DNA from: an uncultured Rhodanobacteraceae bacterium
GTDB lineage: Bacteria > Pseudomonadota > Gammaproteobacteria > Xanthomonadales > SZUA-5
Direction of reading: 5' to 3'
Assembly (NCBI GenBank): GCA_937928755.1
Contig: CALEZI010000050.1
Span: 2,361 to 66,360, forward strand
DNA: 64,000 bases
Of the stretch, positions 17,219-41,348 are shown in pieces. The first letter of the stretch is position 1, and each line of letters opens with the position of its first letter. A model generated the notes under the pieces. The model saw only the letters and a list, made by a program, of their open reading frames with translations, was not told where the DNA came from and searched no databases. A program made the position numbers and the translations under genes.

Positions 17219-19453
17219 TCACGGCGACATGGTCGCCGTCAGCGTGACGATTCCGGTACGCGCCTGGGCGAGGTTGGCGAGCGGCGTGGTCGAGCCGGAG
17301 GGATCGCTGCCCCAATAGATGTACGACCCGGTGTAGTTGCTGCCGTTACGGTAGGCACGCACATTGCTGTTGCTGAACAGCCGGTAGTAGCCGATCGAGG
17401 TGTTGCCGACGAACGGTCCGACCGTGCAGTTGCACAGGTTTTGCGCGGTCAGGCCGACATTGACGCCCATCAGCAGGGTGGCGGGCGTCAGGTTGTCGAT
17501 CACCGGCACGAAGTAGCTACTGGATCCGACCACGTTGTCGACGGTGTAGCCCTCGATGGCGCCCTGGGTGAAGGTGGCCGGGTCAAAGTCGCCGCCCATG
17601 GGGTCGCCGATGGCAACCGAAGTCCCGGATATGGTCTGCCGCACCAGGTCCCAACTGATGATCACGGTGGGGCTGCCGGTGTAGGGGAACTGGGTAACGA
17701 CACCGCCCGCCGCGGTTCCGAGCAGTACCCCATTGGCGCGCACGGTGACCGGATAGATCAAATAGTTGGTGATCCGCACGGTCGCGCTGATGGTGCTCTG
17801 CGCGCTACCGCTGAGCGCGACGGTGTAGTTGCCCGAACTTGTGCCGTTGTAACTGGCCACGCGCAGATACCAGGTACCCGCGGACAGCGTGCGTTGCAGG
17901 CGGAAATTGAGGTTGCCGGCGCCATCGTCGTCCTCGGCCACGAAGCTGCAGTTGCTGTCGTAGAGTGTGCCCAGGGAGTCGAAGGAGCTGCTCGCGGACG
18001 CCGTGATGGTCGTCGTGCTGGCCAGCGTGAAACGGAAGAAGTCGACGTCGGTGCTCGGCGTCAGGCTGCCGCCGAAGGTCGTGCCGACGCTGACGCCGGT
18101 CGCCGTCGCGCAACTGTTGCCGTGGTCGTCGCCGGTGGCGACCCCACCGAGTGCAATCTGGTAGCTGCCGCCCGAAGCTGCGTTGAAGCTGGCCACGCGC
18201 AGATACCAGGTACCCGCCGGCAGCGTGCGCTGCAGGCGGAAGTCGAGGTTGCCGGCGCCGTCGTCGTCTTGCGCGATCTGCATGCAGTTGGCGTCGTACA
18301 ACGTGCCGAGCGAGTCGAACACACTGCTCGCCTGCGCAGTCACCACGGTACTGCCGGACAAGGTGAAGCGGAAGAAATCGACATCGCTGGTCGGCGCGAG
18401 GAATCCACTCAAGGTCGAATTCAGCGTGACGGGTGTGGCGCTGGAGCAACTGTTGCCATGGTCGTCGCCGCTTGGGCCGGCGACCGGATTGGCGTAGACC
18501 ACGGAACCGCCGGCATTGGCGACGACAATGCGCAGGTCGCCGGCACCGGCCGGACCGCGCGTCGGCTTGCCTTCGGTGCGCATCTGCACGGTGTGCGCAT
18601 CGGCAAGGCAGAACCCGGCGAAGCCACTGGTCGCGCTGGCCACCGGGTCATGGTAACCGCCGACGACCACGCCGCCCTGGAAGCCCCCGCCGGGACGATC
18701 CACGTAATTCGACAGCAGGCTCATGCCGAAGATGCCGTCGGCGCCGGGCAGCGGCTCGAGCGGCGCCACCGTGGCCACGTAAAATCCGGGCGACACCGTG
18801 GCCGAGGTGACATACGGAGAATTCTGGCCCACCGTGACCACCTGCGAAACGATCATCTGTTGCGTCGGCAGGCGGCGCTCCAGCGTCACCTGTAGGCGGA
18901 TGTTCGGATTGCCCGGCATGGCGCGAAAACCGGTCAACTGGACATCGACGCGTTGGTTCTCGTTGGCCGGATTGGCGATGGTGAATGCGGCGTAACCGGG
19001 TGCCGAGGCGTCCATCTGGCCGCCGAAGTTCAGCCCGCCAGCGAGCACGCGGCTGCCCGGCGCCAGCAACAGCAACTCGGTGCCGTAGCTGCCCGGCTGG
19101 ATGCCGGTTTCCGGCCCGTCGCCAATGGTCAGCACGTAGAATCCCGGGCACGCCAACCCTGGCGTCACGCCGAGCGCGACGCTGCCGCCGGGTTCGTCGA
19201 GCTTGAGTCCCTTGCCGCCCTTGATGCCTTTGTCCGGATGCATCGGCAAACCGGGCAGGAACCGGATGGCTTTGGACGGATGATCCTCGCGGGCAGCCGT
19301 CGGCTGCGGCATTCCGGCGAGCAGTTTCATGGCGCCGTCGACCTGCGCCTGCGCCCGCGCTTCGTCAGCGCGGGCGGCGGCCGTGGGCAGCAGCGACAAG
19401 GCCGCCGCCAGCGCAGCGGCGGCGACCCAATGGGTTCGTGTGGACGTTTGCAT
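17219..19453 (-). CDS. secreted multidomain protein P1: signal peptide, shared Cys-Cys module (copy 1, N-proximal), two PPC-like domains, unknown C-terminal region
   Basis: 744 aa. Signal peptide MQTSTRTHWVAAAALAAALSLLPTAAARA. Residues ~100-325 are CPGFYV...LAGGLNFGG...GYAAF...FYVATVAP...GGFQGGVVVGGYH...GFAGFCL...DLRI. Two repeats of GDDHGNSC..DVDFFRF...DDDGAGNL.FRLQRTL.AGTWYLRV follow. Confidence 0.8.
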   Translation of the reverse strand: MQTSTRTHWVAAAALAAALSLLPTAAARADEARAQAQVDGAMKLLAGMPQPTAAREDHPSKAIRFLPGLPMHPDKGIKGGKGLKLDEPGGSVALGVTPGLACPGFYVLTIGDGPETGIQPGSYGTELLLLAPGSRVLAGGLNFGGQMDASAPGYAAFTIANPANENQRVDVQLTGFRAMPGNPNIRLQVTLERRLPTQQMIVSQVVTVGQNSPYVTSATVSPGFYVATVAPLEPLPGADGIFGMSLLSNYVDRPGGGFQGGVVVGGYHDPVASATSGFAGFCLADAHTVQMRTEGKPTRGPAGAGDLRIVVANAGGSVVYANPVAGPSGDDHGNSCSSATPVTLNSTLSGFLAPTSDVDFFRFTLSGSTVVTAQASSVFDSLGTLYDANCMQIAQDDDGAGNLDFRLQRTLPAGTWYLRVASFNAASGGSYQIALGGVATGDDHGNSCATATGVSVGTTFGGSLTPSTDVDFFRFTLASTTTITASASSSFDSLGTLYDSNCSFVAEDDDGAGNLNFRLQRTLSAGTWYLRVASYNGTSSGNYTVALSGSAQSTISATVRITNYLIYPVTVRANGVLLGTAAGGVVTQFPYTGSPTVIISWDLVRQTISGTSVAIGDPMGGDFDPATFTQGAIEGYTVDNVVGSSSYFVPVIDNLTPATLLMGVNVGLTAQNLCNCTVGPFVGNTSIGYYRLFSNSNVRAYRNGSNYTGSYIYWGSDPSGSTTPLANLAQARTGIVTLTATMSP
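18479..19156 (-). other. shared Cys-Cys module, copy 1 (in P1)
   Basis: P1 residues ~100-325. Aligns by eye with the copies at 29039-29761, 31474-32187, 36374-37075 and 39497-40168. Confidence 0.7.
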
Positions 19454-19556
19454 GGACGCACCTCTATCGTGAGCGGGGCGCGGGAGACGCCGCCCCCTCG
19501 CGCGATCGTCCGCCTCTGGTCGCGGTTCGCCTTGATCAAAGGCAAGACGCCCTCAC

Positions 19557-20519
19557 GTGCAATCTGGATTGGAATTCCGCGTGCTCGATCCAAGCATTTT
19601 CCCCCGCAGCGCCGACCTGAACGCCGCATTCAATCGCCGCGAGCCGTTCCGGCATGTGGTCTTCGAGCCGTTCTTCGACCCCGATTTCCTCGCCCGGCTG
19701 CTCGCCGAATTTCCGTCATTCGAGCGCGGCAATGCGCGTAACGAGGCCGGCGAACTCGGCGGCAAGAGCACGGTGGAGCGTATCCGCGCGCTTGGACCGG
19801 CGTTCGCCGAGCTCGACGATCGCATCCAGTCGGCCGAGTTCCTCGGATTGATCTCGAAGATCACCGGAATCCCGAACCTGCTCTACGACGAGCACTACTT
19901 CGGCGGCGGCACCCATGAGAATCGGCGCGGCCAGGACCTCGATCCGCATGTCGACTTCAACCGCCATCCGATCACCGGCTGGCACCGGCGGCTGAACCTG
20001 ATCGTTTATCTGAATCCGCAGTGGGACGATGCCTGGGGCGGCAGCCTGGAGCTGCATTCGGATCCGCGGCGCGAGGACAACCGCATCACCCTGGTCACCC
20101 CGCTGTTGAACCGCGCCGTGATCTTCGAGACCACCGAATGGAGCTGGCACGGTTTTGCGCGCATCGCGCCGCCGGCCGATCGCCCGGAGCTCACGCGGCG
20201 CTCGATCGCGCTGTACTTCTACACGGTGGAGCGACCGGCCGAAGAACTGGCGGATCCGCATTCGACCATCTATGTCGATCGCCCGCTTGCCGCGCACTAC
20301 GTCGCCGGCTACACGCTGACCGAAGACGACCAGCGCGAACTGGCCATCGCCATCACCCGTCGCGACCAGCATATCCAGCGCCTTTACCGTGACATCACCC
20401 GCATCACCGCCGAGCTCGAAGGCGCCAAGCACACGCTGGAACAGGTGCTGTCCAGCGGCCGCCTCGGCCGCTTGCGCCACGCGGTGCGCGCGATTCTGAG
20501 GATGCTGCGGCGGGGTTAG
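19557..20519 (+). CDS. 2OG-Fe(II) oxygenase superfamily protein (prolyl-hydroxylase-like) with C-terminal coiled coil
   Basis: 320 aa. Contains GGGTHENRRGQDLDPHVDFNRH (HxD iron-binding motif), RRLNLIVYLN, GGSLELH and SWHGF. It is divergent from P1. Confidence 0.7.
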   Translation: MQSGLEFRVLDPSIFPRSADLNAAFNRREPFRHVVFEPFFDPDFLARLLAEFPSFERGNARNEAGELGGKSTVERIRALGPAFAELDDRIQSAEFLGLISKITGIPNLLYDEHYFGGGTHENRRGQDLDPHVDFNRHPITGWHRRLNLIVYLNPQWDDAWGGSLELHSDPRREDNRITLVTPLLNRAVIFETTEWSWHGFARIAPPADRPELTRRSIALYFYTVERPAEELADPHSTIYVDRPLAAHYVAGYTLTEDDQRELAIAITRRDQHIQRLYRDITRITAELEGAKHTLEQVLSSGRLGRLRHAVRAILRMLRRG

Positions 20520-20566
20520 CTGGGTGGTCGCGCCGCGAGTTCCGTAAGCCATTGATGAAAGGCTTT

Positions 20567-20676
20567 GTCCGCAAAGGACGCAAAGAACGCAAAGGAAAGC
20601 AGAAGAGGCAGGACTTCGGTCTTGGGTGCCAAGATCAATCTTCGCTCCCTTTGCGTTCTTTGCGTTCTTTGCGGGC
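20567..20676. repeat. GCAAAGGAC-unit inverted-repeat element, copy 2
   Basis: tgtccgcaaaggacgcaaagaacgcaaaggaaagc ... ctttgcgttctttgcgttctttgcgggc. Confidence 0.8.
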
Positions 20677-20773
20677 CAAAAATCAGTCCCCGACTGGCCG
20701 CGACCCGTCACCGCCGATGTGGCGGCAACCCGCGCCCTTGGCTACCATCCTGCGTCCAGCGCACGGATAGCCC

Positions 20774-23149
20774 ATGTCGGAATCGCCGCCATCGCAGATA
20801 CCGGGTTACGAGCTTCTGCGGGAGCTCGGGGCCGGCGGCATGGCGACCGTTTACCTGGCCAACCAGACCTCGCTCGATCGCAAGGTTGCGATCAAGGTGC
20901 TGCGCGTCACCAGCCGCGACGTCGGGACCGAGGGCGAGCGCACCGAGAAGCGCTTCCTGCGCGAAGGTCGCATGCTGGCGCGGTTGTCGCACAAGAACGT
21001 CTGCGGCATCTACGACATTGCCAAGGTCGGCAACCTCGCTTACATCGCGATGGAGTTCATCGAAGGCGGCACGCTGGGCGATCGCCTGCGCAGCGGCATG
21101 ACCGCCGGCGACGCCATCAGCGTCATCGTGCAACTGGCCGGTGCGCTGTCGGCGGCACATGCGATCGGCATCGTCCACCGCGATCTGAAGCCGGCCAACG
21201 TGATGATGCGCGGCAAGGTGCCGGTGCTCACCGACTTCGGCATCGCCCGCGACCTGTCGTCGGACCGTACCGAGATCACCGGCGACAATATCCTCGGCAC
21301 GCCGAATTACATGAGCCCGGAGCAGATCAGCGGCAAGCCGATCGACGGGCGCTCCGATGTTTATTCGCTCGGCGCCATGCTTTTCGAGCTGCTGACCGGG
21401 CGTCAGCCGTACCAGGGCGATTCGCCGATCGCGGTGTGCATGCAGCACCTGCAAGCGCCGATCCCCGAGTTGCCGCAGCAGTTCGCCGAACTGCAGCCGA
21501 TCATCGACGGCATGATGGCGAAGGATCGCGACGATCGATTCGCCGACATGGCCAGCGTGGTCGTGGCGCTGCGCGCGGCGCTGATCGACAGCGAGACGCT
21601 GCGCGCGGCGCTCAAGTTCGACACCGAACTGCCGTGGTCGGAGCAATTGCGCGAATTGGGATTCTCCTTCGACGGGCCTGGTGCGGATACCCTGCGCGAG
21701 GCGATGAAGCGCTCGGCGGAGGGCAAGAGTCAGTTGCCGAAAGGCTCGACGCAGCGAATGAAGGCGCTGCCCGCGGAGCCCACGCCGCCATCGCCACCTG
21801 TGCCGTCGCCGCCGCGCTTCGGCATGCGCGAACGCGCGATCGCGGCGGTGGTTGTGCTGGCGCTGGTGGTCGCCGGGCTGTGGTGGGGCTTGTCCGAGGA
21901 GAAGCTGTCGCCGGAACAGGAATCGCTGCTGTCGATTGCGGCGGCGGCATTCGACAACCAGATGCGGGACGGCAAGCTGGTGGTTCCGAGCAACGACAGC
22001 GCGCTCAACAGCCTGCGCAGCATCTACGTCATTTCGCGCCAGCATCCCGAGGTGCTGGCGCGGCAGCAGGCCTTCCGCAAGGAGGTTGAGCGCCAGGTCG
22101 ACCAGCTCGCCGGCAATGCGCAGTTCGGCGAGGCGCGCAAACTGCTCAGCGACGCCGCCCTGGTGTTCGACGACGCCGACCTCACCCAGCGCCTGGCGAG
22201 CATCGACCAGGCGCAGCAGAACCAGCGCCGCGATGTCGACATTGCGGCGCGCAGCGCCGATGTGGAGGCAATTCTCGACGCGCCGGGCGGCGTCCAGGAC
22301 GCACGCCTCGCCGCGGCGCTGGGCGAGCTCAAGTTGCTGACCGGCGAAAGCGATGCCCGTTACCGCGCGCTGATCGATCGCATCGCCGCAGCGCTGACCA
22401 GCGCGGTGCAACAGTCGGTCGCGGCGCGGCAACTGGAGACCGCCGTCGCTGCGCGCGACCGCATGCGCGAGCTGATTCCAGAATCGGAGGCCACGCGCGC
22501 CGCCAGTGCCGCCGTCGAACGTTTGTCCGCGCTGTCGGCGGCGGAAGCCACGCAAGGCGAACTGGTGGCCCTGCTGCAGGACGGATCGCGGCTGACGCCG
22601 GCCAGCATCGATCAGGTATTGGCCGGCCTGCCCGTGTTGGAGGCCGCCGGACTCGGCGAGCAGTCGGCCACGCTGAGCGCGCGCCTGCTGACGCTGACCG
22701 AGGACGCAGCGCGGCGCGCGCTGGCCGCCAAAGACCTGTCAGCCGCGCGCGCGCTGCTGGCGCCGGTCGCGTTGCGTTATCCGGAAAACGCCGACTTGCG
22801 CAAGCTCGACCAGGACCTGCTCGCAGAAGAGACCGCATTGGTGCAACGCGCGCGTGCCGACGAAGAGGCGCAACGCGCGGGTCGGCTGGCACTCGATGCG
22901 GCGCCGTGGGGCAAGCTGGTGTCGATCGTCGGCGCCGACGGCAGCGAGCAGGCGCTTGGCGCCGACCGCACCACGCCGCTGGTGCTGACGCTGCCGGAAG
23001 GCCGCTACAAGGTCACCCTGACCGGACCGGACGGCAGCACCCGCAGAGAGGCTGATGCCACGGTCACCCGCGGCCAGCTCAGCGTCGCCGAACTCAGCTT
23101 CGCCGCGATCGATGCCGATACCTACCTGAAACAGGCGGGTTATCGATGA
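20774..23149 (+). CDS. transmembrane Hanks-type serine/threonine protein kinase with a long extracytoplasmic helical region and a PEGA-like C-terminus
   Basis: 791 aa. Kinase motifs: GAGGMATVYLA (G-loop), VAIKVL, HRDLKPANVMM, DFGIAR, GTPNYMSPEQ. A single TM helix, AIAAVVVLALVVAGLWWGL, follows. Then ~380 aa of Ala/Leu/Arg-rich sequence ending in LPEGRYKVTLTGPDGS. Confidence 0.9.
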   Translation: MSESPPSQIPGYELLRELGAGGMATVYLANQTSLDRKVAIKVLRVTSRDVGTEGERTEKRFLREGRMLARLSHKNVCGIYDIAKVGNLAYIAMEFIEGGTLGDRLRSGMTAGDAISVIVQLAGALSAAHAIGIVHRDLKPANVMMRGKVPVLTDFGIARDLSSDRTEITGDNILGTPNYMSPEQISGKPIDGRSDVYSLGAMLFELLTGRQPYQGDSPIAVCMQHLQAPIPELPQQFAELQPIIDGMMAKDRDDRFADMASVVVALRAALIDSETLRAALKFDTELPWSEQLRELGFSFDGPGADTLREAMKRSAEGKSQLPKGSTQRMKALPAEPTPPSPPVPSPPRFGMRERAIAAVVVLALVVAGLWWGLSEEKLSPEQESLLSIAAAAFDNQMRDGKLVVPSNDSALNSLRSIYVISRQHPEVLARQQAFRKEVERQVDQLAGNAQFGEARKLLSDAALVFDDADLTQRLASIDQAQQNQRRDVDIAARSADVEAILDAPGGVQDARLAAALGELKLLTGESDARYRALIDRIAAALTSAVQQSVAARQLETAVAARDRMRELIPESEATRAASAAVERLSALSAAEATQGELVALLQDGSRLTPASIDQVLAGLPVLEAAGLGEQSATLSARLLTLTEDAARRALAAKDLSAARALLAPVALRYPENADLRKLDQDLLAEETALVQRARADEEAQRAGRLALDAAPWGKLVSIVGADGSEQALGADRTTPLVLTLPEGRYKVTLTGPDGSTRREADATVTRGQLSVAELSFAAIDADTYLKQAGYR

Positions 23150-24537
23150 GCCGTCAGCGTTTTCATCGGGCTGCGCTTGGCATCCTGCTGATGCTGGTGG
23201 CGAGTGTCGCCGTCGCCGATTACAAGAAGAATTATCTTGATGGTGTCGATGCCGCCAAGAAGGGCCAGTGGGTCGAGGTACGCCGTTTGATGACCGCGGC
23301 GATCGCGGAACGACCCGATGCCGGCCGGGTGAGGTTCTACGGCAGCATTCCGGAACCCTATGTGCCGCACTATTACCTTGGACTGGCCAACGCCAACCTG
23401 GGCGACTGTCCGTCGGCGCTCAGCGCGTTCAAGAACCCCGGCAGCAGTGCGCTGGTCGCCGGTTTGGCGAAAGAAGCGGCCGAGCTGGGCAGGGCGCGGG
23501 CACGCTGCGAGCAGCAGATGCTGGCGCAACAGAGCAAGCCGCCGGAGCCGCCCACGGCGACCACCGAGCCGGTTGCCGTGACCACGCCGCCGACGACCGA
23601 ACCAAAGCCGGTGATCGTGGCGCAGAACCCGCCAGCGAGCGACACCCGACCGCCGGCAACCACGCCAACGGCGCCGACCGCGGTCGCACTGCCCGACGCG
23701 CGTATCGCCCCGGCCAGGGCGGCCATGAGCAAGGTCGATGCCCAGATCGCCAGCATCGAACGCCAGTTGAAGGCAGCGCCACTGGCAGGCACCGGCGACG
23801 CCCGCGGCCTGACGCGCGACCTCGACCTGCTTCGCCGCCAGCGGCAACAGTTGCTGACCAGCCTGGAACGCGCACGCAGCGGTGGCGATGGCAAGCTGCT
23901 GGGCAGCGTCGAAACCGATGCCGCCAAGCTCGGCAGCGACCTCGCTATGCTCGGCGAACGCGTGCAGTCGGCCGGCGTTGGCCTGGCCCAGGCCTTGGAA
24001 GCGACGGCGCTGGAGCGGGCCCGCCGGCAGTCAGCTGATTTGGTGACGAAGATCGATCAGCGCCTCACCGAAGCACGCGCGGCGGGTGTCGAAGGAAGCG
24101 CGGCCGTGGCGGCGCTCGGGCCGGCGCGCACACAGTTGCAGCAGTTGGTTGCCGGCAGCGATCGCGCCGCCATCGAGCGCGCGCTGGCCGCGGCGACCAA
24201 GGCGACCGCGCAACTGGAGGCGGCCATTGCCGCTGCGCCCAAGCCGGCGCCGGAGCCGTTGCGCGCACTAGTCGGCGCCTACCTGACCGCGAAGTACGCC
24301 GAGGTTGCGCGCTGGGACAATGTTGCGGAACTGCCCGACGCCCGCGCCCGTGCCCAGGCGCACCTGCTGCGCGGAGCCGCGCGCTGGCACCTGTACGTGC
24401 GCGACGGCGAGCAGGACGGCAGCCTGCGCGCCGCGATCGACAGCGATCTGCGCGAAGCCAAGCGTCTCGACCGCGCGCTCAAGCCGAATACGCAGGTCTT
24501 TTCGCCGAAGCTGGTGGAGCGTTTCGCGGCCTTGTGA
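23146..24537 (+). CDS. hypothetical secreted protein (TPR-like N-domain, Pro/Thr linker, coiled coil), translationally coupled to the kinase
   Basis: 463 aa. The ATG at 23146 overlaps the kinase TGA (ATGA). Signal peptide MSRQRFHRAALGILLMLVASVAVA. Contains the linker PPEPPTATTEPVAVTTPPTTEPKP. I recognise no family. Confidence 0.65.
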   Translation: MSRQRFHRAALGILLMLVASVAVADYKKNYLDGVDAAKKGQWVEVRRLMTAAIAERPDAGRVRFYGSIPEPYVPHYYLGLANANLGDCPSALSAFKNPGSSALVAGLAKEAAELGRARARCEQQMLAQQSKPPEPPTATTEPVAVTTPPTTEPKPVIVAQNPPASDTRPPATTPTAPTAVALPDARIAPARAAMSKVDAQIASIERQLKAAPLAGTGDARGLTRDLDLLRRQRQQLLTSLERARSGGDGKLLGSVETDAAKLGSDLAMLGERVQSAGVGLAQALEATALERARRQSADLVTKIDQRLTEARAAGVEGSAAVAALGPARTQLQQLVAGSDRAAIERALAAATKATAQLEAAIAAAPKPAPEPLRALVGAYLTAKYAEVARWDNVAELPDARARAQAHLLRGAARWHLYVRDGEQDGSLRAAIDSDLREAKRLDRALKPNTQVFSPKLVERFAAL

Positions 24538-24600: not shown

Positions 24601-25872
24601 TCAGAAGCGCATCACGCCGGACACCGAATAGGTATCGACGATATCGGAGAAATCCGCCGCCAGATCGAGCTGGAAGCTGGTAAATGCCCAGCCCAGGCCG
24701 AGGCTGAAATGGGTCTCGTCGTCGCCCTTGGTGAACAGGACCGCATCGACGCAGGCCTCGAAATCGATGTTGCAATCGGTTGGGGTCGGACCGCCATAAG
24801 CGAGGCGGTGGTCCGGATCGAACCAGACGCCGGCGCGCAAGAACATCGGTGTCGCCATGTCGAGGAACGCGTATTCGGCGCCGAGGCGCACCTCGGTGCC
24901 ATCGTCGACGTCGAGATTGGCGACCACCCCCGGGAAGATCGAATCGACGTCGTCGGTCAGCTTGCTGTACTCGACGAAGTTCACGTCCAGCGAGAACAGC
25001 CATGCATCGGTCGGGCGGAACGCCAGACCGGCGCTGAACACATTCGGCACCGCGAATCCGGTCTTGACATCGGCGATCAGCGGATCGCCGTCGGCGTCCA
25101 GGTTCGAGCTGGTGTAGCTGAAGTCGCCGCCGTCGCGGTAAGCCAGCCCGAAGTTCCACTGCGGCGTGATCTGCCACAACGCGCCCAGCGAAAACACGAT
25201 GTCGTCGTCGCTGCCGCGCTGGCGCTGCGAACTGCCCGGATCGATTCCGCCGCGTGTCGTGCGCGAGGCCAGGGCGAAATCCGAATAGGCGATGGTCGCG
25301 CCGATCGAGAAGGTGTCCGAAACCGAAAAGCCCACCGCCGCACCGAAATTCTCGACCTCGTAGCTGATCGAGCCCAGCGCCGGGTCGATCCGTCCGGCCG
25401 GACCGAGGTCGTCGAGGTATTCGATCGCGTCGGCGTTCACGCTGCCCTCGAAATCGCCCACGCGGTGGTAGAACAGCGAAAAGGTCGCGCGCTCGGTCGG
25501 GTACACGACGGATGCGAACGACACCTGCGAAACCGTGTCCGAGGTCGAGGCCTCGCCGACGCCACTGGCGTTGAAGGGATCGAGGGGAAACTCGCCGCCG
25601 GACGCATAGCTGCTGTCGAAGTCCGTGCTGCGCGCTTCCAGGCCGAACTCCGCCTTGCGCAGAATGGTCAGGCCGGCCGGGTTGGCATACGCGGCCGTCG
25701 CGTCGTCAGCCAGTCCGGTGAAGGCGCCGCCCAGTCCCAGCGAGCGTGCGCCCGGATTGGAGAAGTTGAACTGCAGGCCGCGGTTCAACTCGTCGTTGGT
25801 GATTGCCAGAGCGGCCGCAGGCGCCAGGGCCAGCGCCACCAACACTGCATGAGCGATAGCTTTGTGACGCAT
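24601..25872 (-). CDS. outer-membrane beta-barrel transport protein, OMPP1/FadL/TodX-like
   Basis: 423 aa. Signal peptide MRHKAIAHAVLVALALAPAAALA. The N-terminal GARSLGLGGAFTGLADDATAAYANPAGL resembles the FadL-family hatch motif. Alternating amphipathic strands follow, and the protein ends in a terminal Phe (VSGVMRF). Confidence 0.75.
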   Translation of the reverse strand: MRHKAIAHAVLVALALAPAAALAITNDELNRGLQFNFSNPGARSLGLGGAFTGLADDATAAYANPAGLTILRKAEFGLEARSTDFDSSYASGGEFPLDPFNASGVGEASTSDTVSQVSFASVVYPTERATFSLFYHRVGDFEGSVNADAIEYLDDLGPAGRIDPALGSISYEVENFGAAVGFSVSDTFSIGATIAYSDFALASRTTRGGIDPGSSQRQRGSDDDIVFSLGALWQITPQWNFGLAYRDGGDFSYTSSNLDADGDPLIADVKTGFAVPNVFSAGLAFRPTDAWLFSLDVNFVEYSKLTDDVDSIFPGVVANLDVDDGTEVRLGAEYAFLDMATPMFLRAGVWFDPDHRLAYGGPTPTDCNIDFEACVDAVLFTKGDDETHFSLGLGWAFTSFQLDLAADFSDIVDTYSVSGVMRF

Positions 25873-33324: not shown

Positions 33325-34185
33325 ATGACCCTCGATCTGCCGCACGGCTTCAAGCGTTGGTCCAACTTTGCCGAGGTCGAGGCCGGTGCGTTTCGGCTGG
33401 GCGAGGAATGGCGCGGCCAGCAGGCGTTCCAGGCGCAACTGCTGGCGAACGGTCGCGAGCGCAAGGTCGGTGGCTATTGCGCGCTGTGCCAGTGCGAAAC
33501 CGAGTTCGCGATCCGCGGGCCTGAGGGTGTCGAGCCGAACTGGCGCGAGACGATGAACTGCGCGCAGTGCGAATTGATCAATCGCTGGCGCGCCAGCGCG
33601 CACCTGTACGCGCTGCTGGCACCCACGGCGCCGCCCGGTCCGGTGTACATGACCGAACAGACCACGCCGCTGTTCGCCTGGATGGCCGAGCGTTATCCCG
33701 GTTTGATCGGCAGCGAGTACCTCGGGCCCGAAGTTGCACCAGGCGCGACGGTGTCGCGACACGGGCATTCACTGCGCCACGAGGACATCACCGCGCTGTC
33801 GATGGCCGATGCCAGCCTGGCCGCGATCCTGAGCTTCGACGTGCTCGAACACGTGCCCGACTACCGCGGCGCCGTGCGCGAATTCGCGCGCACCCTGATG
33901 CCCGGCGGTCTGTTGCTGCTGACCGCACCGTTCCATTTTCAGGGCGCGCAGACCATCGTGCGCGCCCGCCTCGGCGGCGATGGTCATATCGAGCACGTGC
34001 TGCCGGCGATGTACCACGGCGACCCGCTGAGCGCCGACGGCGTGCTTTGCTGGCAGGAGTTCGGCTGGGATCTGTTGACGGAACTTAACAATGCCGGCTT
34101 CGGTCAGACCGAAGTGATCAGCTGCTGGGCGCCGGAATTCGGTTACCTCGGTGGTCTGCAACCGTTCGTGGTTGCCAGGCGTTAG
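33325..34185 (+). CDS. class I SAM-dependent methyltransferase with N-terminal CxxC...CxxC zinc-ribbon
   Basis: ORF 33247..34185, with start at MTLDLPHGFKRW (ATG 33325). Contains YCALCQCETEF...MNCAQCELINRW and, later, ILSFDVLEHVPDYRGAVREFARTLMPGGLLLLTAPF (methyltransferase post-I/II motifs). Confidence 0.7.
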   Translation: MTLDLPHGFKRWSNFAEVEAGAFRLGEEWRGQQAFQAQLLANGRERKVGGYCALCQCETEFAIRGPEGVEPNWRETMNCAQCELINRWRASAHLYALLAPTAPPGPVYMTEQTTPLFAWMAERYPGLIGSEYLGPEVAPGATVSRHGHSLRHEDITALSMADASLAAILSFDVLEHVPDYRGAVREFARTLMPGGLLLLTAPFHFQGAQTIVRARLGGDGHIEHVLPAMYHGDPLSADGVLCWQEFGWDLLTELNNAGFGQTEVISCWAPEFGYLGGLQPFVVARR

Positions 34186-34270
34186 GCGCATTCCTGAAGT
34201 CCAGGGGCCCGGCGCCTTGGCGCCGTGGTTCGCCGCATCGGCAATTGCCCTGGATGACCTGGAGTTCCCC

Positions 34271-37078
34271 ATGCCTGCATCGATTCACCGATTGCGCAGC
34301 TTGCCTGCCGTGTTGATGTTCGCGGCGTCGCCATTGCTCGCGCAGACCGCCGATACCCGCTTTGGCGCCTGGAGCGAGGCGGGTGCAGCGAATCAGCCCG
34401 GGCGCGTGCTCGATGGCCTGCAACTGGATAATGGCAACTATCTGCAACTGAGCGCTGACGGTGTGGTCTGGCTCACCGGGCGCGAGGACGGACCGATTCC
34501 GCTCAACGATGCAGCGGCCCTGCGACCGCTCGGAACGACCTCCGCAATGCTGTACTTCGGCGGCCCGCTCCCTCGGGTGGTCCTGAGCGCCGATCGACCC
34601 GCGGGCATCCACCTCAGCGCCAACGATGGATTCACCTGGTACAGCGCTACCGGGCTCGATGCCAGCGGCGTCGATCTTGGCCTTGAGGCCCGGCCTGCCA
34701 GTGGTCAGGTGTTCCACTTGAGACAACTGCCGCAATCCGCCGGGCAGCCGGCGCAGCTGGCACTGCATGCGTCGGCCGATCGCGGTGAGTCGTTCAGCCG
34801 CATAGCCTTGTTGCCGTTTTACTCGGCGCTCGACTCGCAGCCGGCCGGCAACGCCTTCTACGTGCTGCGCGAAAACCTGCTGGTCGAGACCAATGTACTC
34901 GGGAACTTCCTGTCGGACGTCGGTGCGGTGCCGATCGACTTCCCGCCCGAAGCGCTGCGCGGCATCGGCGTCTGTGCCGGCGGGGTCGGCGCCGTGGATC
35001 ATGTCTGGGCCTTCTACAAGGTCGGCGACGGCGACAACGCCGAGGTGCGGGTGTACCGGTCGCTGGATGGCGGACGCCAATGGCAGGCGCGCACGTCGAT
35101 CCCGGGCAAGTTCCCGACGCGCATCCCGGTGCAGTGCTCGCGCAGCGATCCGTCGCTGGCGTTCGTCGCTGGCGAAGGGGCATGGCGGACCGCAGACGGC
35201 GGCAGCAGTTGGCAGCCGATTTCCGATGTGGCCGCTCACGCAACCGCGCCGCACAGCAATCTGCCGGCCGCCGTCCATCGTATCCGCAGTTCGCGTTTCG
35301 ATGAACGGTCAGAGCGATTGCTGTTCGCCACGGACGCGGGCCTGTACGAATCCGCTGACGCCGGGCGCACGGTGAGCCGCCTGCCGCAGACCTTGCGCAA
35401 CAGCCAATACCCGCAGCTCGCGAGCCGATCGCCGCTGGGAGATCTGGTTTTTCTCGCCGCCGGCGAGGGCGGCTACCAGCGCATGAACATCATCATGACG
35501 ACCCCGGCATTCAGCACCCGACGCGCCAGCGGCAGCTATCGGCGACTGGCGCTTGCCGATGACGGCAGCCGCGTATGGCTGGCCGGCGCTGACGGAGTTC
35601 TGCTGGATGCCGACCCGGCGAGCGCGACCGCGTCCCGCCTGTACCACTGGACCCTGCCCGATCGCGTGCGCGCCAGCAGCGACTTGTTGCTGGTGGCGAT
35701 GCCGGGCGATCGCGACCGCGCCCTGCTCGGCGGCGTGAATATCGACGGCGCACCGGGACTGCTGGAACTCGGTTTCGACGGCACCACGATCCACTGGCGC
35801 GCACTCGACCACCGATTCGCGACCGACGCCGCCAGCGTCGCTCTGACCGCGTCGCCGCATCAACAAGGTCGCTTGTACGTGGCCGATGCGTTGGGTCGGC
35901 TGCATCGCAGCGATGACGCGGGCCGCAGTTTCAGCCTGCTCGCGGGCGGCGCAGTCGTCGGCCAGGGGGTGCGCGAGATCCTGGTCGACCCGACCCGGCC
36001 CGATCGCCTGCTGCTGGGCGGCGACGCCGGCGCGCTGGCCAGCGTGCGCGAATCTCTCGACGGCGGCAGCAGCTTTCACGACTACGCCGACGGCCTGATT
36101 CCGACCACGGTCAACGCGCTGGCGCTGTCGGGCGATGGCCGCCATCTGTTCGCAGCCAGCGCCGATGGCCCGTGGTATCACGAACCCGCGACGGCGCGCT
36201 GGCGCCATATCGGCGCTGGCCAGGCGCCCGACCAGAATTACCTCGATGTCGAATATGTAGACCGCATCCAGCGCGCGCGCTTCGCCACTGCAGGTCGCGG
36301 CATGTGGCAGGTGCAGCTGCTGGCGCCGGCCCCGGCCGGCGCCACGCTCGACGAACCGCAAGCCGCGGGTTTGCCGTTGCCGCTGCCGGCGGCGCCGCAA
36401 TTTGGTTGTCCGGCCGGGTTCTATGTGGCGGAAGTCGATGATGGTCCGGGTGCCGGGGATCATCCGGGTAGCTTCGGAATGGAGCTGTTGCTGGATGCGC
36501 CCGGTACCCGCGAACTGGCGGGGGGCCTGAACTTTGGCGGGCTGATCGACGCCGGGCAACCCGGTTTCGCCGGCTTCAGCCTGCGCACCTCGCAAACCGT
36601 GCGCCTGGAGCTGCGCGCTGCCGACGCTCAAGGCGATCCCATCGCCCTGCAGGTGCGCGTGAGCCAGCGCATCGGAACGCACAGCAACGTGGTCCACGAA
36701 AGCACGCCGATGCTGTCCCTGGAGCAGCCGTGGCAGACCGAGCTGCTCTTGACCCCGGGGTTCTACGAAGCCCGGGTGGCGGCGCCCTGCTGCAGCGCGG
36801 ACACCGCGGGCGGCGCGCCCGAGGCGCAGTTCTATTTTTCGATGACGACGCCGGGCGGCCCTGGTTTCGAGGGCGGCGCGGTGGTCGGCGGTCATCATGC
36901 CAGCGTGGCCGGCCTGATCTCCGGCTTCGCGTCGTTCTGCCTGGCCCAGCCCCATTCGATCACTCTGCGCACGCTGAGCGCGCCCAGCTACGGTCCGGTT
37001 GGTGCCCGCGACCTCAGGCTGCGCTTGCGCGATGGCGAAGGACGCACGCTGCTGTTGTTGCCGGCCACCGCGCCCTGA
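34271..37078 (+). CDS. secreted multidomain protein P4: BNR/Asp-box (sialidase/Ycf48-like) beta-propeller(s) plus C-terminal shared Cys-Cys module (copy 4)
   Basis: ORF 34151..37078, with start at MPASIHRLRSLPAVLMFAASPLLA (ATG 34271). Asp-box motifs are SADRGESF, SLDGGRQW, TADGGSSW, SADAGRTV, SDDAGRSF and SLDGGSSF. The last 234 aa are the shared module. Confidence 0.8.
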   Translation: MPASIHRLRSLPAVLMFAASPLLAQTADTRFGAWSEAGAANQPGRVLDGLQLDNGNYLQLSADGVVWLTGREDGPIPLNDAAALRPLGTTSAMLYFGGPLPRVVLSADRPAGIHLSANDGFTWYSATGLDASGVDLGLEARPASGQVFHLRQLPQSAGQPAQLALHASADRGESFSRIALLPFYSALDSQPAGNAFYVLRENLLVETNVLGNFLSDVGAVPIDFPPEALRGIGVCAGGVGAVDHVWAFYKVGDGDNAEVRVYRSLDGGRQWQARTSIPGKFPTRIPVQCSRSDPSLAFVAGEGAWRTADGGSSWQPISDVAAHATAPHSNLPAAVHRIRSSRFDERSERLLFATDAGLYESADAGRTVSRLPQTLRNSQYPQLASRSPLGDLVFLAAGEGGYQRMNIIMTTPAFSTRRASGSYRRLALADDGSRVWLAGADGVLLDADPASATASRLYHWTLPDRVRASSDLLLVAMPGDRDRALLGGVNIDGAPGLLELGFDGTTIHWRALDHRFATDAASVALTASPHQQGRLYVADALGRLHRSDDAGRSFSLLAGGAVVGQGVREILVDPTRPDRLLLGGDAGALASVRESLDGGSSFHDYADGLIPTTVNALALSGDGRHLFAASADGPWYHEPATARWRHIGAGQAPDQNYLDVEYVDRIQRARFATAGRGMWQVQLLAPAPAGATLDEPQAAGLPLPLPAAPQFGCPAGFYVAEVDDGPGAGDHPGSFGMELLLDAPGTRELAGGLNFGGLIDAGQPGFAGFSLRTSQTVRLELRAADAQGDPIALQVRVSQRIGTHSNVVHESTPMLSLEQPWQTELLLTPGFYEARVAAPCCSADTAGGAPEAQFYFSMTTPGGPGFEGGAVVGGHHASVAGLISGFASFCLAQPHSITLRTLSAPSYGPVGARDLRLRLRDGEGRTLLLLPATAP
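36374..37075 (+). other. shared Cys-Cys module, copy 4 (C-terminus of P4)
   Basis: PLPLPAAPQFGCPAGFYVAEVDDGPGAG...LAGGLNFGGLIDAGQPGFAGF...PGFYEARVAAP...PGFEGGAVVGGHH...GFASFCLAQPHS...DLRLRL. Confidence 0.7.
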
Positions 37079-37183
37079 GCTCAGTGCAAAGCGCGGAGTT
37101 CAGGGGATGATCTTCATGTGGATCAAGGTGCCATCGGCGAGGATCTGATAAGCAGTCGCCAACGAAGCACGGAGCCTTTGGCC

Positions 37184-40171
37184 ATGAATCCCCGCAATCC
37201 GCGCGCAGCGCATCGCAGTATCGACGACCTTTGCGCCCGCGCCAGCGTGCTGCTCGCATTGCTCGTGGCGGGTGCCGCCGGGGCCTCCCCGGTGGTCCCG
37301 TTGCGCGATACCACGCTGGGCACCCAGGGCGACTTCGGTCGCGGCTGCGCCTTCGTCGGCAACCAGTTGCAGTGCTGGGGCGGCAACTCCAGCGGTTCGC
37401 TCGACATCGGCGCCACCGCATTGGAGTCGCTGACGACGTGGATGAAGCGACCGGATACGGCGTCAGGCGACTTTGACCGCCCGACCAGTCTGGTTGCGAT
37501 CGACCGCACCTGCCTGACCGATGCTGCCGGCGTCTGGTGCTGGGGGCGCAACGAGCGCGGCCAACTCGGGCTGGGCGATCGCGTCAATCGACCCACGCCG
37601 GAGCACTTGCCGGGGCTGCCGGGTGATGTCGTCGAGGTCGTGTTCGGGCGGTACCACGCCTGTGCCCGCACGCAGGCGAGCGGACTGTGGTGCTGGGGCG
37701 GCAACAACTACGGCGAGACCGGCCAGGCGCCGGGCGCTGCGGTGCTCGACCCGGTCACCAATGTGGTGATGAGCCCACCGCAAACGCGCGCCATGGCGGT
37801 GCCCGGCTTGCCGGCAACGCCGATTGCCGTGGCGCTCGGCGAGTACTTCAGTTGCGCGCTGGTCGGTACCGGGGTCTGGTGCTGGGGCAACAATGAACAG
37901 GGCCAGCTGGGCGATGGCAGCCAGATCGCGCGCCCGCTGCCGGCGCCGGTGACCGGCCTGCCGGCGACCATCCAGCGTATCGCCCTCGGCGAACAGCACG
38001 CCTGCGCCATCGATGGCATCGGCGATGTCTGGTGCTGGGGCAACAACCAGTCGGCACAGGTCGGCGTCGCGGCCAGCACGACGCGGCTGATCGAACCCTT
38101 GCCGCTGCGCGTCAATGCTATGGGCGGTCCGGCAACCCGGCTGTACCTGAGTTTCTCGCAGAGCTGCGCGCTGGTGGGTAGCGACAAGAAGTGCTGGGGT
38201 GTATCGATCGACGGAACCAATGGCCCGAACCCTCAAGTGATCGCCAAGCCTGCGGGTGCCCCCGCCGACTGGCTGTCCGACTGCTACTCGCTCGCGGGGG
38301 AATTGCAATGTCCGGTGGTCTCGACGCGCCACCCGCACACACCGCTCGACGCCCGCCCGGTGCCCGGATTGTCCGGTCGTCCGGCGCAGCTGGCGCTCAG
38401 CCGCGACTTTGCCTGCGCGCGGATGCCCGATCAGTCGGTGTGGTGCTGGGGCACCAATACCCGTGGCCAACTGGGGCAGGGCGATGTGAATGCGCGTGCG
38501 CAGGCCGTTCGTGTGCCGCTGCCGCCGACCCAACAGATCGCCGTCGGCACCGCGCACGCGTGCGCTGCCACCAGCGACGGCCTGTGGTGCTGGGGCAGCA
38601 ATGCCTACGCCGCACTCGGCGACGGTACTTCTGTCGATCGCCCAGCTCCGGTCCGCTCGCAATTCGCCGGCACGCTGATTGCCGCCGGCGAGGGCCACAC
38701 CTGCGCCTACGCCTCGGGCGGCGAGTTGCGCTGCTGGGGCAACAATTCGGTCGGTCAGGTCAGTGGACAGCACTCGGGGACGCTTCCGGGTGGCGCCTCG
38801 CCGCTGGGCGCGGCGGCAATCCGCGAACTGAGCGCCGGCCTGTCGCACACCTGCGCGGTATTGCAGTTGTCGGCTGGCGCCACGGAAACGCGCTGCTGGG
38901 GTCAGTTGCCGACGACCGCCGATGAGGCCACCGGCGGCATCACCGACTACAGTCCGCGCCTGATCACTCCCGGCAATCCGATACCGGCCGACTCCATCAT
39001 CACGCTGCGTTCGTCCGGGTTCACCACCTGCGCCGGCGACCGTTGTTTCGGTTTGAGCTACCTGCCGGCCGATCGTGGCGTGTTCCGCGTCGACCAGTTG
39101 CTTGTGCCGCCGATGCCGTCGCCGCGCGCGTTCGCCCTCGGCAGCCGCCTCGCGTGTCTGCAGGGCGCTGGAACCGATGTGCGCTGTTCGGCGCTGACCA
39201 ACCGCGCCTGCCAGTTCGAGTGGCTTGCACGCTTGCTGTTCACGCCAGGCCAGATGATCGGCTGCCAGTTCTCCGAATCGCTGGTCTCGCCTGCGGAGCG
39301 CGAGTGGATCCGCGTGATCGGCCTGCCATCGCCGCCGCTGTTGCTGCAAGGCGGCGAGCAGTACGCCTGCGCAGCGCTCGCCCAGGGCACTTATTGCTGG
39401 GGTCCGCGGGTGCCGCTTTACTTCAACGCGAGCGGAGCCGACTACGGTCCGGTCTACCGCGCGGGCGCCATCGAACCGGCACCGACGGTGGCGGTGCCAC
39501 TCGATCCGGCGCGCGCTTGCCCGGCGTATCTGGTGTCCTCGGTCAGTCTGCTCGACCCCTCCGCGGCGGACGCAGCAGGCGCCTGGGGCCAGGAGATCCT
39601 GCTCGGCAGCGGCAGGCGCTTCCTCAATGGCGGGCTCAATTTCGGCGGTTTCGGCAGCGCCGCGGGATCCGGCGTGCCGGGTTATGCGGCGTTTTCGATC
39701 AACAACCCGGCCAACAGCGAGCAGGCGGTGACACTCGATCTGCGCGGTGACGGCGGCGAGTTCACGCTCACGATCGAAAGCACGCTGCCGCCGTCGACCG
39801 CACGCATCGAAGTGCTGCGCGAACGCGTGACCCTGGTCGATGCGCCGCTGCGACGCAGTGTCAATCTGCGCAACGGTTTTCACATCGTGGTGCTGCAACC
39901 GGTCTCGGGGACACGCCTGTTCCTTGCCGGCATCGGCACCACCACCCTCGATGGGGGTCCTGCCGCATTTCAGGGCGGCGCCGTGGTCGGCGGCCATCTT
40001 GGCGGCGAGCAAACCGGCTTCAGCGGCATCTGCACCGACGACGCCACCAGCGTGTCGATCCGCACCGAGGCGCGCAGCAGCCGTGGCCTGATCGGTGCAA
40101 GCGACCTGCGCCTGCGCACGATCGAAGGCCAGACCGGCGCCATGCTTTACGACAGCGCGCCCGCCCAGTGA
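37184..40171 (+). CDS. secreted multidomain protein P5: RCC1-repeat beta-propeller(s) plus C-terminal shared Cys-Cys module (copy 5, most divergent)
   Basis: ORF 37118..40171. The ATG at 37184 follows GGAG and gives MNPRNPRAAHRSIDDLCARASVLLALLVAGAAGA. There are at least 10 RCC1-like blades, for example VWCWGRNERGQLGLGD, LWCWGGNNYGETG, VWCWGNNEQGQLGDG, VWCWGTNTRGQLGQGD and LRCWGNNSVGQV. Confidence 0.8.
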   Translation: MNPRNPRAAHRSIDDLCARASVLLALLVAGAAGASPVVPLRDTTLGTQGDFGRGCAFVGNQLQCWGGNSSGSLDIGATALESLTTWMKRPDTASGDFDRPTSLVAIDRTCLTDAAGVWCWGRNERGQLGLGDRVNRPTPEHLPGLPGDVVEVVFGRYHACARTQASGLWCWGGNNYGETGQAPGAAVLDPVTNVVMSPPQTRAMAVPGLPATPIAVALGEYFSCALVGTGVWCWGNNEQGQLGDGSQIARPLPAPVTGLPATIQRIALGEQHACAIDGIGDVWCWGNNQSAQVGVAASTTRLIEPLPLRVNAMGGPATRLYLSFSQSCALVGSDKKCWGVSIDGTNGPNPQVIAKPAGAPADWLSDCYSLAGELQCPVVSTRHPHTPLDARPVPGLSGRPAQLALSRDFACARMPDQSVWCWGTNTRGQLGQGDVNARAQAVRVPLPPTQQIAVGTAHACAATSDGLWCWGSNAYAALGDGTSVDRPAPVRSQFAGTLIAAGEGHTCAYASGGELRCWGNNSVGQVSGQHSGTLPGGASPLGAAAIRELSAGLSHTCAVLQLSAGATETRCWGQLPTTADEATGGITDYSPRLITPGNPIPADSIITLRSSGFTTCAGDRCFGLSYLPADRGVFRVDQLLVPPMPSPRAFALGSRLACLQGAGTDVRCSALTNRACQFEWLARLLFTPGQMIGCQFSESLVSPAEREWIRVIGLPSPPLLLQGGEQYACAALAQGTYCWGPRVPLYFNASGADYGPVYRAGAIEPAPTVAVPLDPARACPAYLVSSVSLLDPSAADAAGAWGQEILLGSGRRFLNGGLNFGGFGSAAGSGVPGYAAFSINNPANSEQAVTLDLRGDGGEFTLTIESTLPPSTARIEVLRERVTLVDAPLRRSVNLRNGFHIVVLQPVSGTRLFLAGIGTTTLDGGPAAFQGGAVVGGHLGGEQTGFSGICTDDATSVSIRTEARSSRGLIGASDLRLRTIEGQTGAMLYDSAPAQ
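39497..40168 (+). other. shared Cys-Cys module, copy 5 (C-terminus of P5)
   Basis: PLDPARACPAYL...LNGGLNFGGFGSAAGSGVPGYAAFSINNPANSE...AFQGGAVVGGHLGGEQTGFSGICTDD...SDLRLRT. Confidence 0.6.
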
Positions 40172-40523
40172 TGCAGGATCGCAATCCTCGGTTCGTCCTG
40201 AGCGTTTCCCGCGAGCCTTGCGAGCGGGAAATGGTCGAAGGACGCCCACCGCGCACCTGCTCAGCCCGCTTGCGATTCGCAAATGCCATGCATCTCCCAT
40301 GGCGCAACTACGCTGGGGGCGGTCCTCGCGACAGCATCGAACCCGGCAAGTCCGCGTCCTTCGACGGTTTCACCCGGAACAGTGTGGGGGAAACGCTCGG
40401 GACGAACGGTATCGCGATGGGTTCACCGAATGGTCACGAGCGCCGCCACCCGCGCGGCGATACCGCTATCCTGCGCGTCCCCGTCCGCCGCGCTGGCGAA
40501 CGCAAACTCATTTGAGGGTCGCC

Positions 40524-41348
40524 GTGAGCCACAACCTGCCCACCCATCCGACCGTCGACCAGCTCGAGGCCTTCCTGGTCGGATTCGGCGGCACCGATGG
40601 CGGTTATCTGCGCGCGCACTGGCCGCGTTTCGTCGAGACCAAGGCCGAGCTGATGACCACCTGGCCGCAGCAGCGCGGCAATCGCCTGCTGGATGTCGGT
40701 GGCCACTGGCTGCACCAGGCGGCGCTCTACGCGGTCGATGGTTTCGACGTCACATCGGTGGACCTGGCAGCGACGTTCGAGTTGCCGCACGTGCAGGCGC
40801 AGGCTCGGGCGCTGGGCATCAAGCTGCATCTGGAGACCAACCTCGAGCACCCGCAGGTGCTGTCGCAATTGCCGGACAACAGTTTCGACCTGATCTTGTT
40901 CAGCGAGATCATCGAGCACATCACCTTCAACCCGGTGGCGATGTGGACGGTGCTGTACAAGTTGCTGGCGCCCAAGGGCCGCATCGTCGTGACCACGCCG
41001 AACTACTACGCCCTGCGCGGTCGTTTGTGGAATCCCAAGCGCTTCCTGTCCGGCAATGGCGGCGGCCTGCCGGTGCGCGAAATCATGGATTACCACACCT
41101 ACGGCCATCACTGGAAGGAGTTCTCGGCCAAGGAGCTGATCGAATACTTCTACCGGGTGTCGCCCGACTTCTGCACCACCAAGGCGGCGCATCGCCACGC
41201 GTTCCACGAGCGCCAGTATGGTCCGCCGCCCGGCGGCTTGGCGCGCTGGCTCGAGAAACGTTTCCCGATCCTGCGCCCGAACCTGCACATGGAAATCGAC
41301 TTGCTCGAAAAGAAGCAGGGGATTCTGGCGAAACCGGGCTGGGCGTAG
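40524..41348 (+). CDS. class I SAM-dependent methyltransferase
   Basis: This is the C-terminal part of ORF 40095..41348. The GTG at 40524 is preceded by GAGGG and gives (M)SHNLPTHPTVDQLEAFLVGFGG. Contains LLDVGGHWLHQAALYAVDGFDVTSVDL (motif I-like), FDLILFSEIIEHI and LAPKGRIVVTTPN. Confidence 0.7.
   Translation: MSHNLPTHPTVDQLEAFLVGFGGTDGGYLRAHWPRFVETKAELMTTWPQQRGNRLLDVGGHWLHQAALYAVDGFDVTSVDLAATFELPHVQAQARALGIKLHLETNLEHPQVLSQLPDNSFDLILFSEIIEHITFNPVAMWTVLYKLLAPKGRIVVTTPNYYALRGRLWNPKRFLSGNGGGLPVREIMDYHTYGHHWKEFSAKELIEYFYRVSPDFCTTKAAHRHAFHERQYGPPPGGLARWLEKRFPILRPNLHMEIDLLEKKQGILAKPGWA

Follow-up and report, generated by a model that had tools for sequence, protein, structure and literature searches.

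The 64-kb stretch of DNA analysed here (64,000 nucleotides of contig CALEZI010000050.1 from an uncultured Rhodanobacteraceae bacterium; hereafter, the window) contains, between the genes puuE and ilvI, a 24-kb block of 11 genes, five of which code for Sec-exported multidomain proteins (P1, P2, the lysyl endopeptidase precursor PROT, P4 and P5). We show that these five proteins share a module of ~245 amino acid residues, which constitutes a previously uncurated, rare, extracytoplasmic all-beta domain, and that the block is a lineage-specific paralogue cluster of uncultured Lysobacterales, vertically kept. The other six genes code for a 2-oxoglutarate/Fe(II)-dependent (2OG-Fe(II)) oxygenase (OXY), a transmembrane Hanks-type Ser/Thr kinase (KIN), a secreted helical/coiled-coil protein (CC), a FadL/TodX-family outer-membrane barrel (OMP) and two class I S-adenosylmethionine (SAM) methyltransferases (MT1 and MT2). 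In our best reading, the 11 genes would constitute neither one unit nor a mobile island. MT1, MT2, OXY and the KIN/CC pair recur beside module genes of other genomes in shuffled orders, and therefore seem to form with the module a looser functional set, smaller than 11 genes.

The five copies of the module are 31–77% identical in BLASTP comparisons, and a hidden Markov model built from them recovered, in the six-frame translation of the 64 kb, exactly these five copies, within 22 kb, and none elsewhere. The module occupies different positions in its hosts. It is N-terminal in P1 (17219–19453, minus strand; 744 residues, secreted), which is composed of a signal peptide, the module (residues 81–327; nt 18473–19207), two PPC-like repeats and a C-terminal region, and it is internal in PROT (30010–33117, plus strand), in which a signal peptide, a pro-region and an S1 protease domain (residues 206–471) are followed by the module (nt 31438–32196), a PKD domain and two PPC domains. 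In the three secreted propeller proteins, all encoded on the plus strand, the module is C-terminal: P2 (26300–29764; 1143–1154 residues; module nt 29009–29761) has PD40 propeller repeats and a MAM-like region in common with M36 peptidases, P4 (34271–37078; module nt 36338–37075) is of the sortilin/BNR-like type, and P5 (37118–40171; module nt 39464–40168), which carries the most divergent copy, has RCC1 repeats (WD40_RLD, 217.7 bits). A DEP motif, nearly invariant, opens the module and precedes LPxPxP...CPxGF, and the motifs GGLNFGG and GGxVVGGYH and two conserved cysteine residues were also identified. Orthologues of the P1 module were found at 93% identity in two loci of other genomes (designated L038 and L040; the same notation is used below) and at 54% in L058, P2 orthologues in L009 (65%) and L071 (53%), and P5 orthologues in L036 (52%), L047 (51%) and L066. 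The P2 and PROT modules are 77% identical to each other in the window, against 72% between the P2 module and its orthologue in the Lysobacterales metagenome-assembled genome (MAG) Bin_3 and 68% between the PROT module and its own, a pattern that may reflect partial homogenisation between paralogues.

Even at E ≤ 1, the module contains no match to a Pfam or NCBIfam family, no PDB sequence matched it at E ≤ 10, and by profile it belongs neither to PPC or PKD nor to the known carbohydrate-binding module (CBM) families. The AlphaFold2 (AF2) model, calculated from an alignment of 34 sequences, is all-beta (predicted local distance difference test score, pLDDT, 91; predicted template modelling score 0.85), and a Foldseek search of PDB and BFVD retrieved generic sandwiches and jelly rolls only, with query-normalised template modelling scores (TM-scores) ≤0.34, including CBM11, a MAM domain, the C-terminal domain of the Clostridium perfringens enterotoxin, lambda gpJ and birnavirus VP2. 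In the curated families and literature searched we found no description of the module or of this combination of genes, and the domain is not mentioned in the paper on Wenzhouxiangella predation; the statement of the first-pass annotation of this DNA, that no described system combines these genes, is in line with these searches.

The module is rare. A profile search of 1.84 billion cluster representatives identified 265 that carry it at E ≤ 1e-3 and 123 at E ≤ 1e-30, and a scan that covered 185,579 species by one genome each, and that relied on a single peptide pattern and could miss divergent copies, yielded 29 loci, every one in a MAG and none in a cultured isolate; the module has been seen so far in uncultured bacteria only (MAGs and metagenomes). 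The hosts are mostly Lysobacterales, with several copies per genome; Wenzhouxiangellaceae and single MAGs of Acidobacteria and Pseudomonadota complete the list. Of 151 complete copies, 105 are located at the C-terminal end, 30 follow a signal peptide at the N-terminus and 16 are internal, and this variability is easier to reconcile with a binding module than with a secretion signal. Signal-like N-termini are present in 105 of the 130 full-length module proteins, which, with the two conserved cysteine residues, fits an extracytoplasmic module. In the 50 members whose fusion partners were analysed, these are propellers (PD40, Rax2/DUF5122, sortilin/BNR, RCC1 and FG-GAP), as well as subtilases (S8), an M35 Lys-specific metalloprotease, M64, PPC, PKD and GH71 domains.

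Some of the other hosts present arrangements of their own. In Wenzhouxiangella MAGs (L005–L008, 8427–10960), the gene for a 319-residue module protein overlaps the stop codon of that for a 525-residue Peptidase_S74 intramolecular-chaperone protein, with a second module gene and the gene for a 1117-residue CotH-kinase protein within 9 kb. In an Acidobacteria-type MAG lineage (L062, 2219–13642; L063; L029), a 1206-residue module protein is encoded between divergent Wzm/Wzt exporter genes and a gene for a YfhO-family membrane protein. A 1623-bp contig labelled as uncultured Burkholderiales MAG (L035) codes for a P5 C-terminus 83% identical to that of the window, and the downstream DNA is also conserved; it seems likely that a relative of the window organism is the source of this contig, which would then have been mis-binned.

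MT1 (33325–34185, plus strand; 286 residues, without signal peptide) has an N-terminal CxxC...CxxC segment and matches PF08241 (Methyltransf_11; 37.3 bits, cut-off 21.2), and its nearest PDB sequences, weak matches, are sugar O-methyltransferases. MT2 (~40506–41348, plus strand; ~280 residues), which also lacks a signal peptide, matches PF13489 (Methyltransf_23; 36.3 bits, cut-off 27) and, weakly, the phosphoethanolamine N-methyltransferases of the PDB (E 4e-7). OXY (19557–20519, plus strand), of the cytoplasmic prolyl 4-hydroxylase (P4H)/OGFOD1-like type with a C-terminal helix, matches PF13640 (2OG-FeII_Oxy_3; 61 bits, cut-off 27) and contains the iron triad HxD...H plus RxS, readable in the sequence as PHVD...WHG...RRS; its matches among PDB sequences are 9blq, a P4H-domain protein, and OGFOD1 (4nhx), its closest solved relatives being protein hydroxylases. 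KIN (20774–23149, plus strand) scores 163.9 bits with PF00069 (Pkinase; cut-off 31.7), with readable VAIK, HRDLKPxN, DFG and SPE motifs, and 283 bits with the PknB-like NF033483, under the equivalog cut-off of that family. Its single transmembrane helix (residues ~355–375) is followed by an extracytoplasmic helical domain of ~410 residues. The start of CC (23146–24537, plus strand; 463 residues) overlaps the stop codon of KIN; the protein is composed of a Pro/Thr-rich linker and long helical regions, has no Pfam match and is 70–75% identical to its counterparts in L038 and L040. A cluster of the type that produces ribosomally synthesized and post-translationally modified peptides, which may combine a kinase, an oxygenase and a methyltransferase, was considered but not retained: precursor-like genes are limited to those for Sec proteins of ~1000 residues, and the scores for lanthionine synthetase and YhhC are far under the cut-offs.

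The Lys-C-like label that the protease had received from its sequence is correct, since residues 206–471 of PROT align with residues 3–267 of the 268 of mature Achromobacter protease I (1arb; E 4.9e-71), and the catalytic motifs TANHC, DFALL and GGSSGSG are readable, which places it among the lysyl endopeptidases (S1 family). The five module proteins contain only 0.2–0.95% lysine, against 2.5% in the products of the flanking genes and 4.1% in CC, and the module family as a whole contains 0.9%. Such a low content fits exposure, outside the cell, to the co-encoded Lys-specific protease, and may be adaptive in proteins secreted together with Lys-specific proteases, the M35 Lys-specific metalloprotease being also fused to the module elsewhere.

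MT1 recurs as a neighbour of module genes. It follows the protease gene in L009 (68% identity) and a P2-like gene plus a Methyltransf_24 gene in L016 (46%), is divergent from a P1 orthologue in L058 (56%), and is located in L071 (61%) between the genes for a module-bearing lysyl endopeptidase and a module-bearing propeller protein, with an MBOAT gene, two more methyltransferase genes and a P2 orthologue nearby. In L047 the order is protease-MT1-MT2-P5 (MT1 52% and MT2 84% identical), and in the close relative L066 MT1 is 90% identical and a 280-residue methyltransferase occupies the position of MT2. Oxygenase homologues (~50%) are encoded beside module genes in L013, L016 and L024, and in L011 a kinase (52–61%) and CC (42%) come directly after a module gene. 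As MT1 has a different partner gene from one genome to another, these adjacencies are unlikely to result from inherited gene order alone. Two loci stand apart. In L070 (10001–13212; Pseudomarimonas sp. MAG, GCA_052390415.1), two oxygenase homologues (69% and 49%) directly adjoin a MT1 orthologue (56%), and module genes are absent within 10 kb; in L069 a MT1 orthologue has neither a module gene nor an oxygenase gene nearby. MT1 and the oxygenase thus resemble a self-contained functional pair, which is often but not always found among module genes. The GGDEF/EAL genes that also recur near module genes were judged to be there by chance, given the abundance of those families.

Several of these contexts hint at a connection with glycans. 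MT1 homologues (42–45%) in Thiocystis violascens and in a Dyella strain are located inside ABC-transporter-type O-antigen clusters, which hold glycosyltransferases, methyltransferase-glycosyltransferase fusions, an acyltransferase-SGNH protein, GDP-heptose genes and a Wzt with a carbohydrate-binding C-terminal domain. The hint comes from these relatives, from the sugar O-methyltransferase matches of MT1, from the MBOAT (L071) and other acyltransferase (Acyl_transf_3, L022) genes beside module genes, where Methyltransf_24 (L016) is also found, and from the Wzm/Wzt neighbour in L062. We favour, with a probability of roughly 35%, a reading in which the module is a lectin- or CBM-type binding domain whose ligand is tailored by MT1, MT2 and the oxygenase, with KIN and CC acting as a sensor. 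The module would hold diverse exoproteins on, or retain them at, one common ligand, most likely a glycan of the producer's own surface or a polymer substrate; the cytoplasmic MT1, MT2 and P4H-like oxygenase would modify this ligand by methylation and hydroxylation; and the transmembrane kinase and its coupled periplasmic partner CC would form a regulatory sensor pair. The barrel is predicted to be an ordinary channel for hydrophobic substrates, which would be in the block merely in this lineage.

A number of observations weigh against this proposal. The ligand and the binding site of the module are putative, as is its localisation, and the matches to its predicted fold (see the TM-scores above) are too weak for a CBM label. 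MT1 is a generic class I enzyme of a family (1563 matches) far broader than the module, and its orthologue in L069 does without both module and oxygenase. The resemblance of OXY to protein prolyl hydroxylases fits protein modification better than glycan tailoring, and a glycosyltransferase is absent from the 11-gene block of the window. Some of the adjacencies of MT1 or the oxygenase with module genes also have a common ancestry, and may represent inherited synteny rather than independent events.

The broad MT1 family and the solitary MT1 of L069 would fit an absence of functional unity, in which the block had arisen by tandem multiplication of exoprotein paralogues with a domain in common, and the kinase, the barrel, the oxygenase and the methyltransferases were unrelated neighbours kept by local synteny. 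This explanation, which we consider rather doubtful, also accounts for the OMP homologues in unrelated contexts and for the module genes dispersed over at least five to eight contigs in Bin_3, UBA245 and Co_bin.113, with mostly unrelated neighbours (GGDEF/EAL, TonB receptors, relA). It does not easily account for a MT1 that adjoins a different module gene in each genome (protease, P2-like, P1-like), for the adjacency of MT1 and MT2 in L047 and of MT1 and oxygenase in L070, or for the KIN/CC pair after a module gene in L011; an adjacency that is shuffled and yet repeated, at 46–68% identity, is hard to obtain from inherited order alone. The same enzymes could instead act on the module itself, the oxygenase and the methyltransferases modifying the exoproteins before Sec export and so stabilising or protecting them beside the Lys-specific protease, with the DEP...LPxPxP...CP boundary motif as candidate target. 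The protein hydroxylases closest to OXY, the nearly invariant Pro-rich DEP/LPxPxP motif at the N-terminal boundary of the module, the lysyl endopeptidase gene adjoining MT1 in four of seven contexts (the window, L009, L047 and L071) and the scarcity of lysine in the module proteins all point in this direction. We nevertheless regard it as unlikely, since the enzymes lack signal peptides and their substrates would be Sec-exported, the genomes whose polysaccharide clusters hold MT1 relatives yielded no module, and L070 has MT1 and oxygenase with no module gene in its surroundings.

That 70% of the copies end exactly at the protein C-terminus, after a conserved DEP boundary, recalls the C-terminal domain (CTD) of the type IX secretion system (T9SS), and the module might accordingly be imagined as a secretion or sorting tag, read by a FadL/PorV-like barrel for passage through, or attachment to, the outer membrane and cleaved at DEP. 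The barrel gene, divergent from the P2 operon, codes for a protein weakly similar to PorV/PorQ (50 bits). The other 30% of the copies are N-terminal or internal, 245 residues is very large for a signal, and the barrel itself scores under the PorV cut-off, is closer in fold to FadL (TM-score 0.65) than to PorV (0.43), belongs to a family far commoner than the module, with homologues that adjoin ycgL, and is never beside module genes outside close relatives, which makes such a tag very improbable. We are hardly more inclined to a bolder version of the idea, which we hold to be quite improbable, in which the module would be the tag of an undescribed gammaproteobacterial anchoring or sorting system, by which diverse exoproteins would be tethered at, or directed to, the cell surface, acting through a hydroxylated and methylated ligand produced by the linked oxygenase-methyltransferase set under the control of the kinase and its partner, and analogous to the T9SS CTD with anionic lipopolysaccharide, or to S-layer homology (SLH) domains with CsaB, but made of unrelated parts.

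One accessory module on many exoproteins is a known kind of architecture, as in PPC, PKD, SLH and T9SS CTD; by sequence, the module is in none of those families. One comparison is with the PPC/PKD extensions of gammaproteobacterial secreted proteases, such as the Achromobacter/Lysobacter lysyl endopeptidase precursors, of which PROT is a true homologue, with PKD and PPC after the catalytic domain. The module is in the same kind of position and is common to different secreted enzymes, but it has no Pfam sequence match, is ~3.5 times longer than PPC, is also present in non-enzymatic propeller proteins and is limited to a few uncultured lineages. With the T9SS CTD/PorV of Bacteroidota it has in common a mostly C-terminal beta-sandwich on many unrelated secreted proteins and a FadL-fold barrel gene in the block; however, 46 of the 151 copies are not C-terminal, Por_Secre_tail matched only one of 34 sequences (E 0.2), and the barrel fails the PorV cut-off, is closer to the FadL fold and is unlinked to the module in other genomes. 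SLH domains anchor proteins non-covalently at the cell surface, on a cell-wall polymer pyruvylated by CsaB. In Wzt, a C-terminal CBM recognises the methyl-capped O antigen (PMC9445017). The likeness to both lies in one module on many exoproteins, linked to small tailoring enzymes with relatives in O-antigen clusters, and it is a likeness of gene neighbourhood, no relationship of sequence or fold being apparent.

As far as profile libraries and literature indicate, the set formed by the module, MT1/MT2 and the oxygenase (with KIN/CC) appears to be undescribed. The module, which is well folded and strongly conserved, is a solid candidate for a new domain family, worth curation as it is missing from Pfam, NCBIfam and PDB; a new system or mechanism is not thereby proven. 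The module-bearing proteases and propeller proteins probably shape the attack on polymers or cells by sludge and sediment Lysobacterales, and the linkage of the module to methyltransferases and oxygenase offers a handle on the means by which exoenzymes are retained at the surface of Gram-negative bacteria outside Bacteroidota, as well as on the protection of proteins secreted together with a lysine-specific protease.

The conservation of the block was analysed in relatives at increasing distance. Bioreactor-sludge metagenomes contain the same strain with an identical layout. Two relatives, with OMP 87% and 73% identical, keep the order lptG-uraD-puuE-P1-OXY-KIN-CC-OMP-P2-protease, both flanks being seen in the former (L066) and only the left flank in the latter. 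L066 continues with an extra module protein of sortilin type, followed by MT1-P4-P5-MT2-ilvI-ilvH. This sixth module gene (L066 6311–9592), between protease and MT1, codes for a 1093-residue sortilin/BNR-type protein that is not present in the window, and the protease of L066 has 840 residues and no PKD match on record. In close relatives, the block thus occupies a stable chromosomal position between puuE and ilvI, with one paralogue gained or lost, in agreement with the vertical maintenance proposed by the first-pass annotation. Co-occurrence of the 11 genes as a unit is found in these close relatives only. In Bin_3, whose puuE is 85% identical, five or more contigs bear module genes, P2-protease-MT1 are the only genes to stay together, and puuE is 3 kb from a different module gene; module genes are likewise scattered in Co_bin.113 (eight module-bearing contigs) and UBA245 (five).

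That the block is no recently acquired mobile island, as the same early reading proposed, also agrees with our results. There is no tRNA in the window, no integrase turned up among the genes of the block and flanks scanned by profile, the GC content of the block (0.65–0.71; 0.78–0.86 at third codon positions, GC3) is in line with that of the flanks, and the same flanks are found in relatives; we therefore rejected a genomic island or mobile element. The "repeat field" noticed before ilvI corresponds to two tandem palindromic elements of ~220 bp (41336–41775), at the right edge of the block and outside the gene set. They are 95% identical to each other, and each holds nested inverted repeats (CCTCGTCATTGCGAG / CTCGCAATGACGAGG), which give them the appearance of miniature inverted-repeat transposable elements or repetitive extragenic palindromic elements; a small fragment match is present at window positions 10641–10674. 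The distance between MT2 and ilvI is 752 bp in the window and 433 bp in L066, from which we conclude that the ~220-bp elements are a strain-level insertion.

OMP (24601–25872, minus strand) was correctly recognised as a FadL-like barrel from its sequence. It scores 42.3 bits with PF03349 (Toluene_X; cut-off 29.7), and its AF2 model (pLDDT 89.7), a barrel with an N-terminal hatch, superposes on FadL. In Foldseek, the TM-scores were 0.62–0.70 for Escherichia coli FadL, 0.66 for 3dwo, 0.63 for BamG and 0.43 for PorV (8gl6_F), and across FadL, TodX, TbuX and BamG about 0.53–0.70. As in the FadL/TodX family, the protein passes the Toluene_X threshold and its model superposes on FadL, TodX and TbuX; unlike in that family, its top structural match is BamG, from the BAM complexes of Bacteroidota, and a role other than transport is therefore possible. 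A PorV-type shuttle was rejected on the basis of a NF033709 score of 50.4 bits (cut-off 90), of the fold and of the missing linkage to the module. The family is widespread in Xanthomonadales (1358 matches), and homologues at 61% and 56% identity adjoin ycgL in unrelated contexts; within 10 kb of module genes, OMP was never found outside close relatives. Its inclusion in a common system thus has no specific link behind it.

With open reading frame (ORF) listing, translation and profile scans, we recovered the 11 genes between puuE and ilvI, at or near the coordinates of the first-pass annotation, with pepA, lptF, lptG, uraD and puuE on the left and ilvI, ilvH and glyS on the right, the core-gene flanks it had described. 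That all 11 would be non-housekeeping is doubtful for OMP, given its widespread family. The seven Sec signal peptides counted there correspond to signal-like hydrophobic N-termini of P1, CC, OMP, P2, protease, P4 and P5, and the co-directional run from P2 to MT2 with short gaps is present (245, 207, 85, 39–105 and about 334 nt). For P2, MT1, P4, P5 and MT2, the start codons called in metagenome assemblies of the same strain and of a close relative are downstream of those first chosen. In a scan for promoters and terminators, sites were no more frequent than in shuffled sequence, so that it is silent on operon structure, and no Rfam family was found within the 64-kb window. Outside the block, between ilvH and glyS, we identified an ORF of 579 codons (44726–46465, plus strand) with coding-type GC3 and no Pfam or NCBIfam match.

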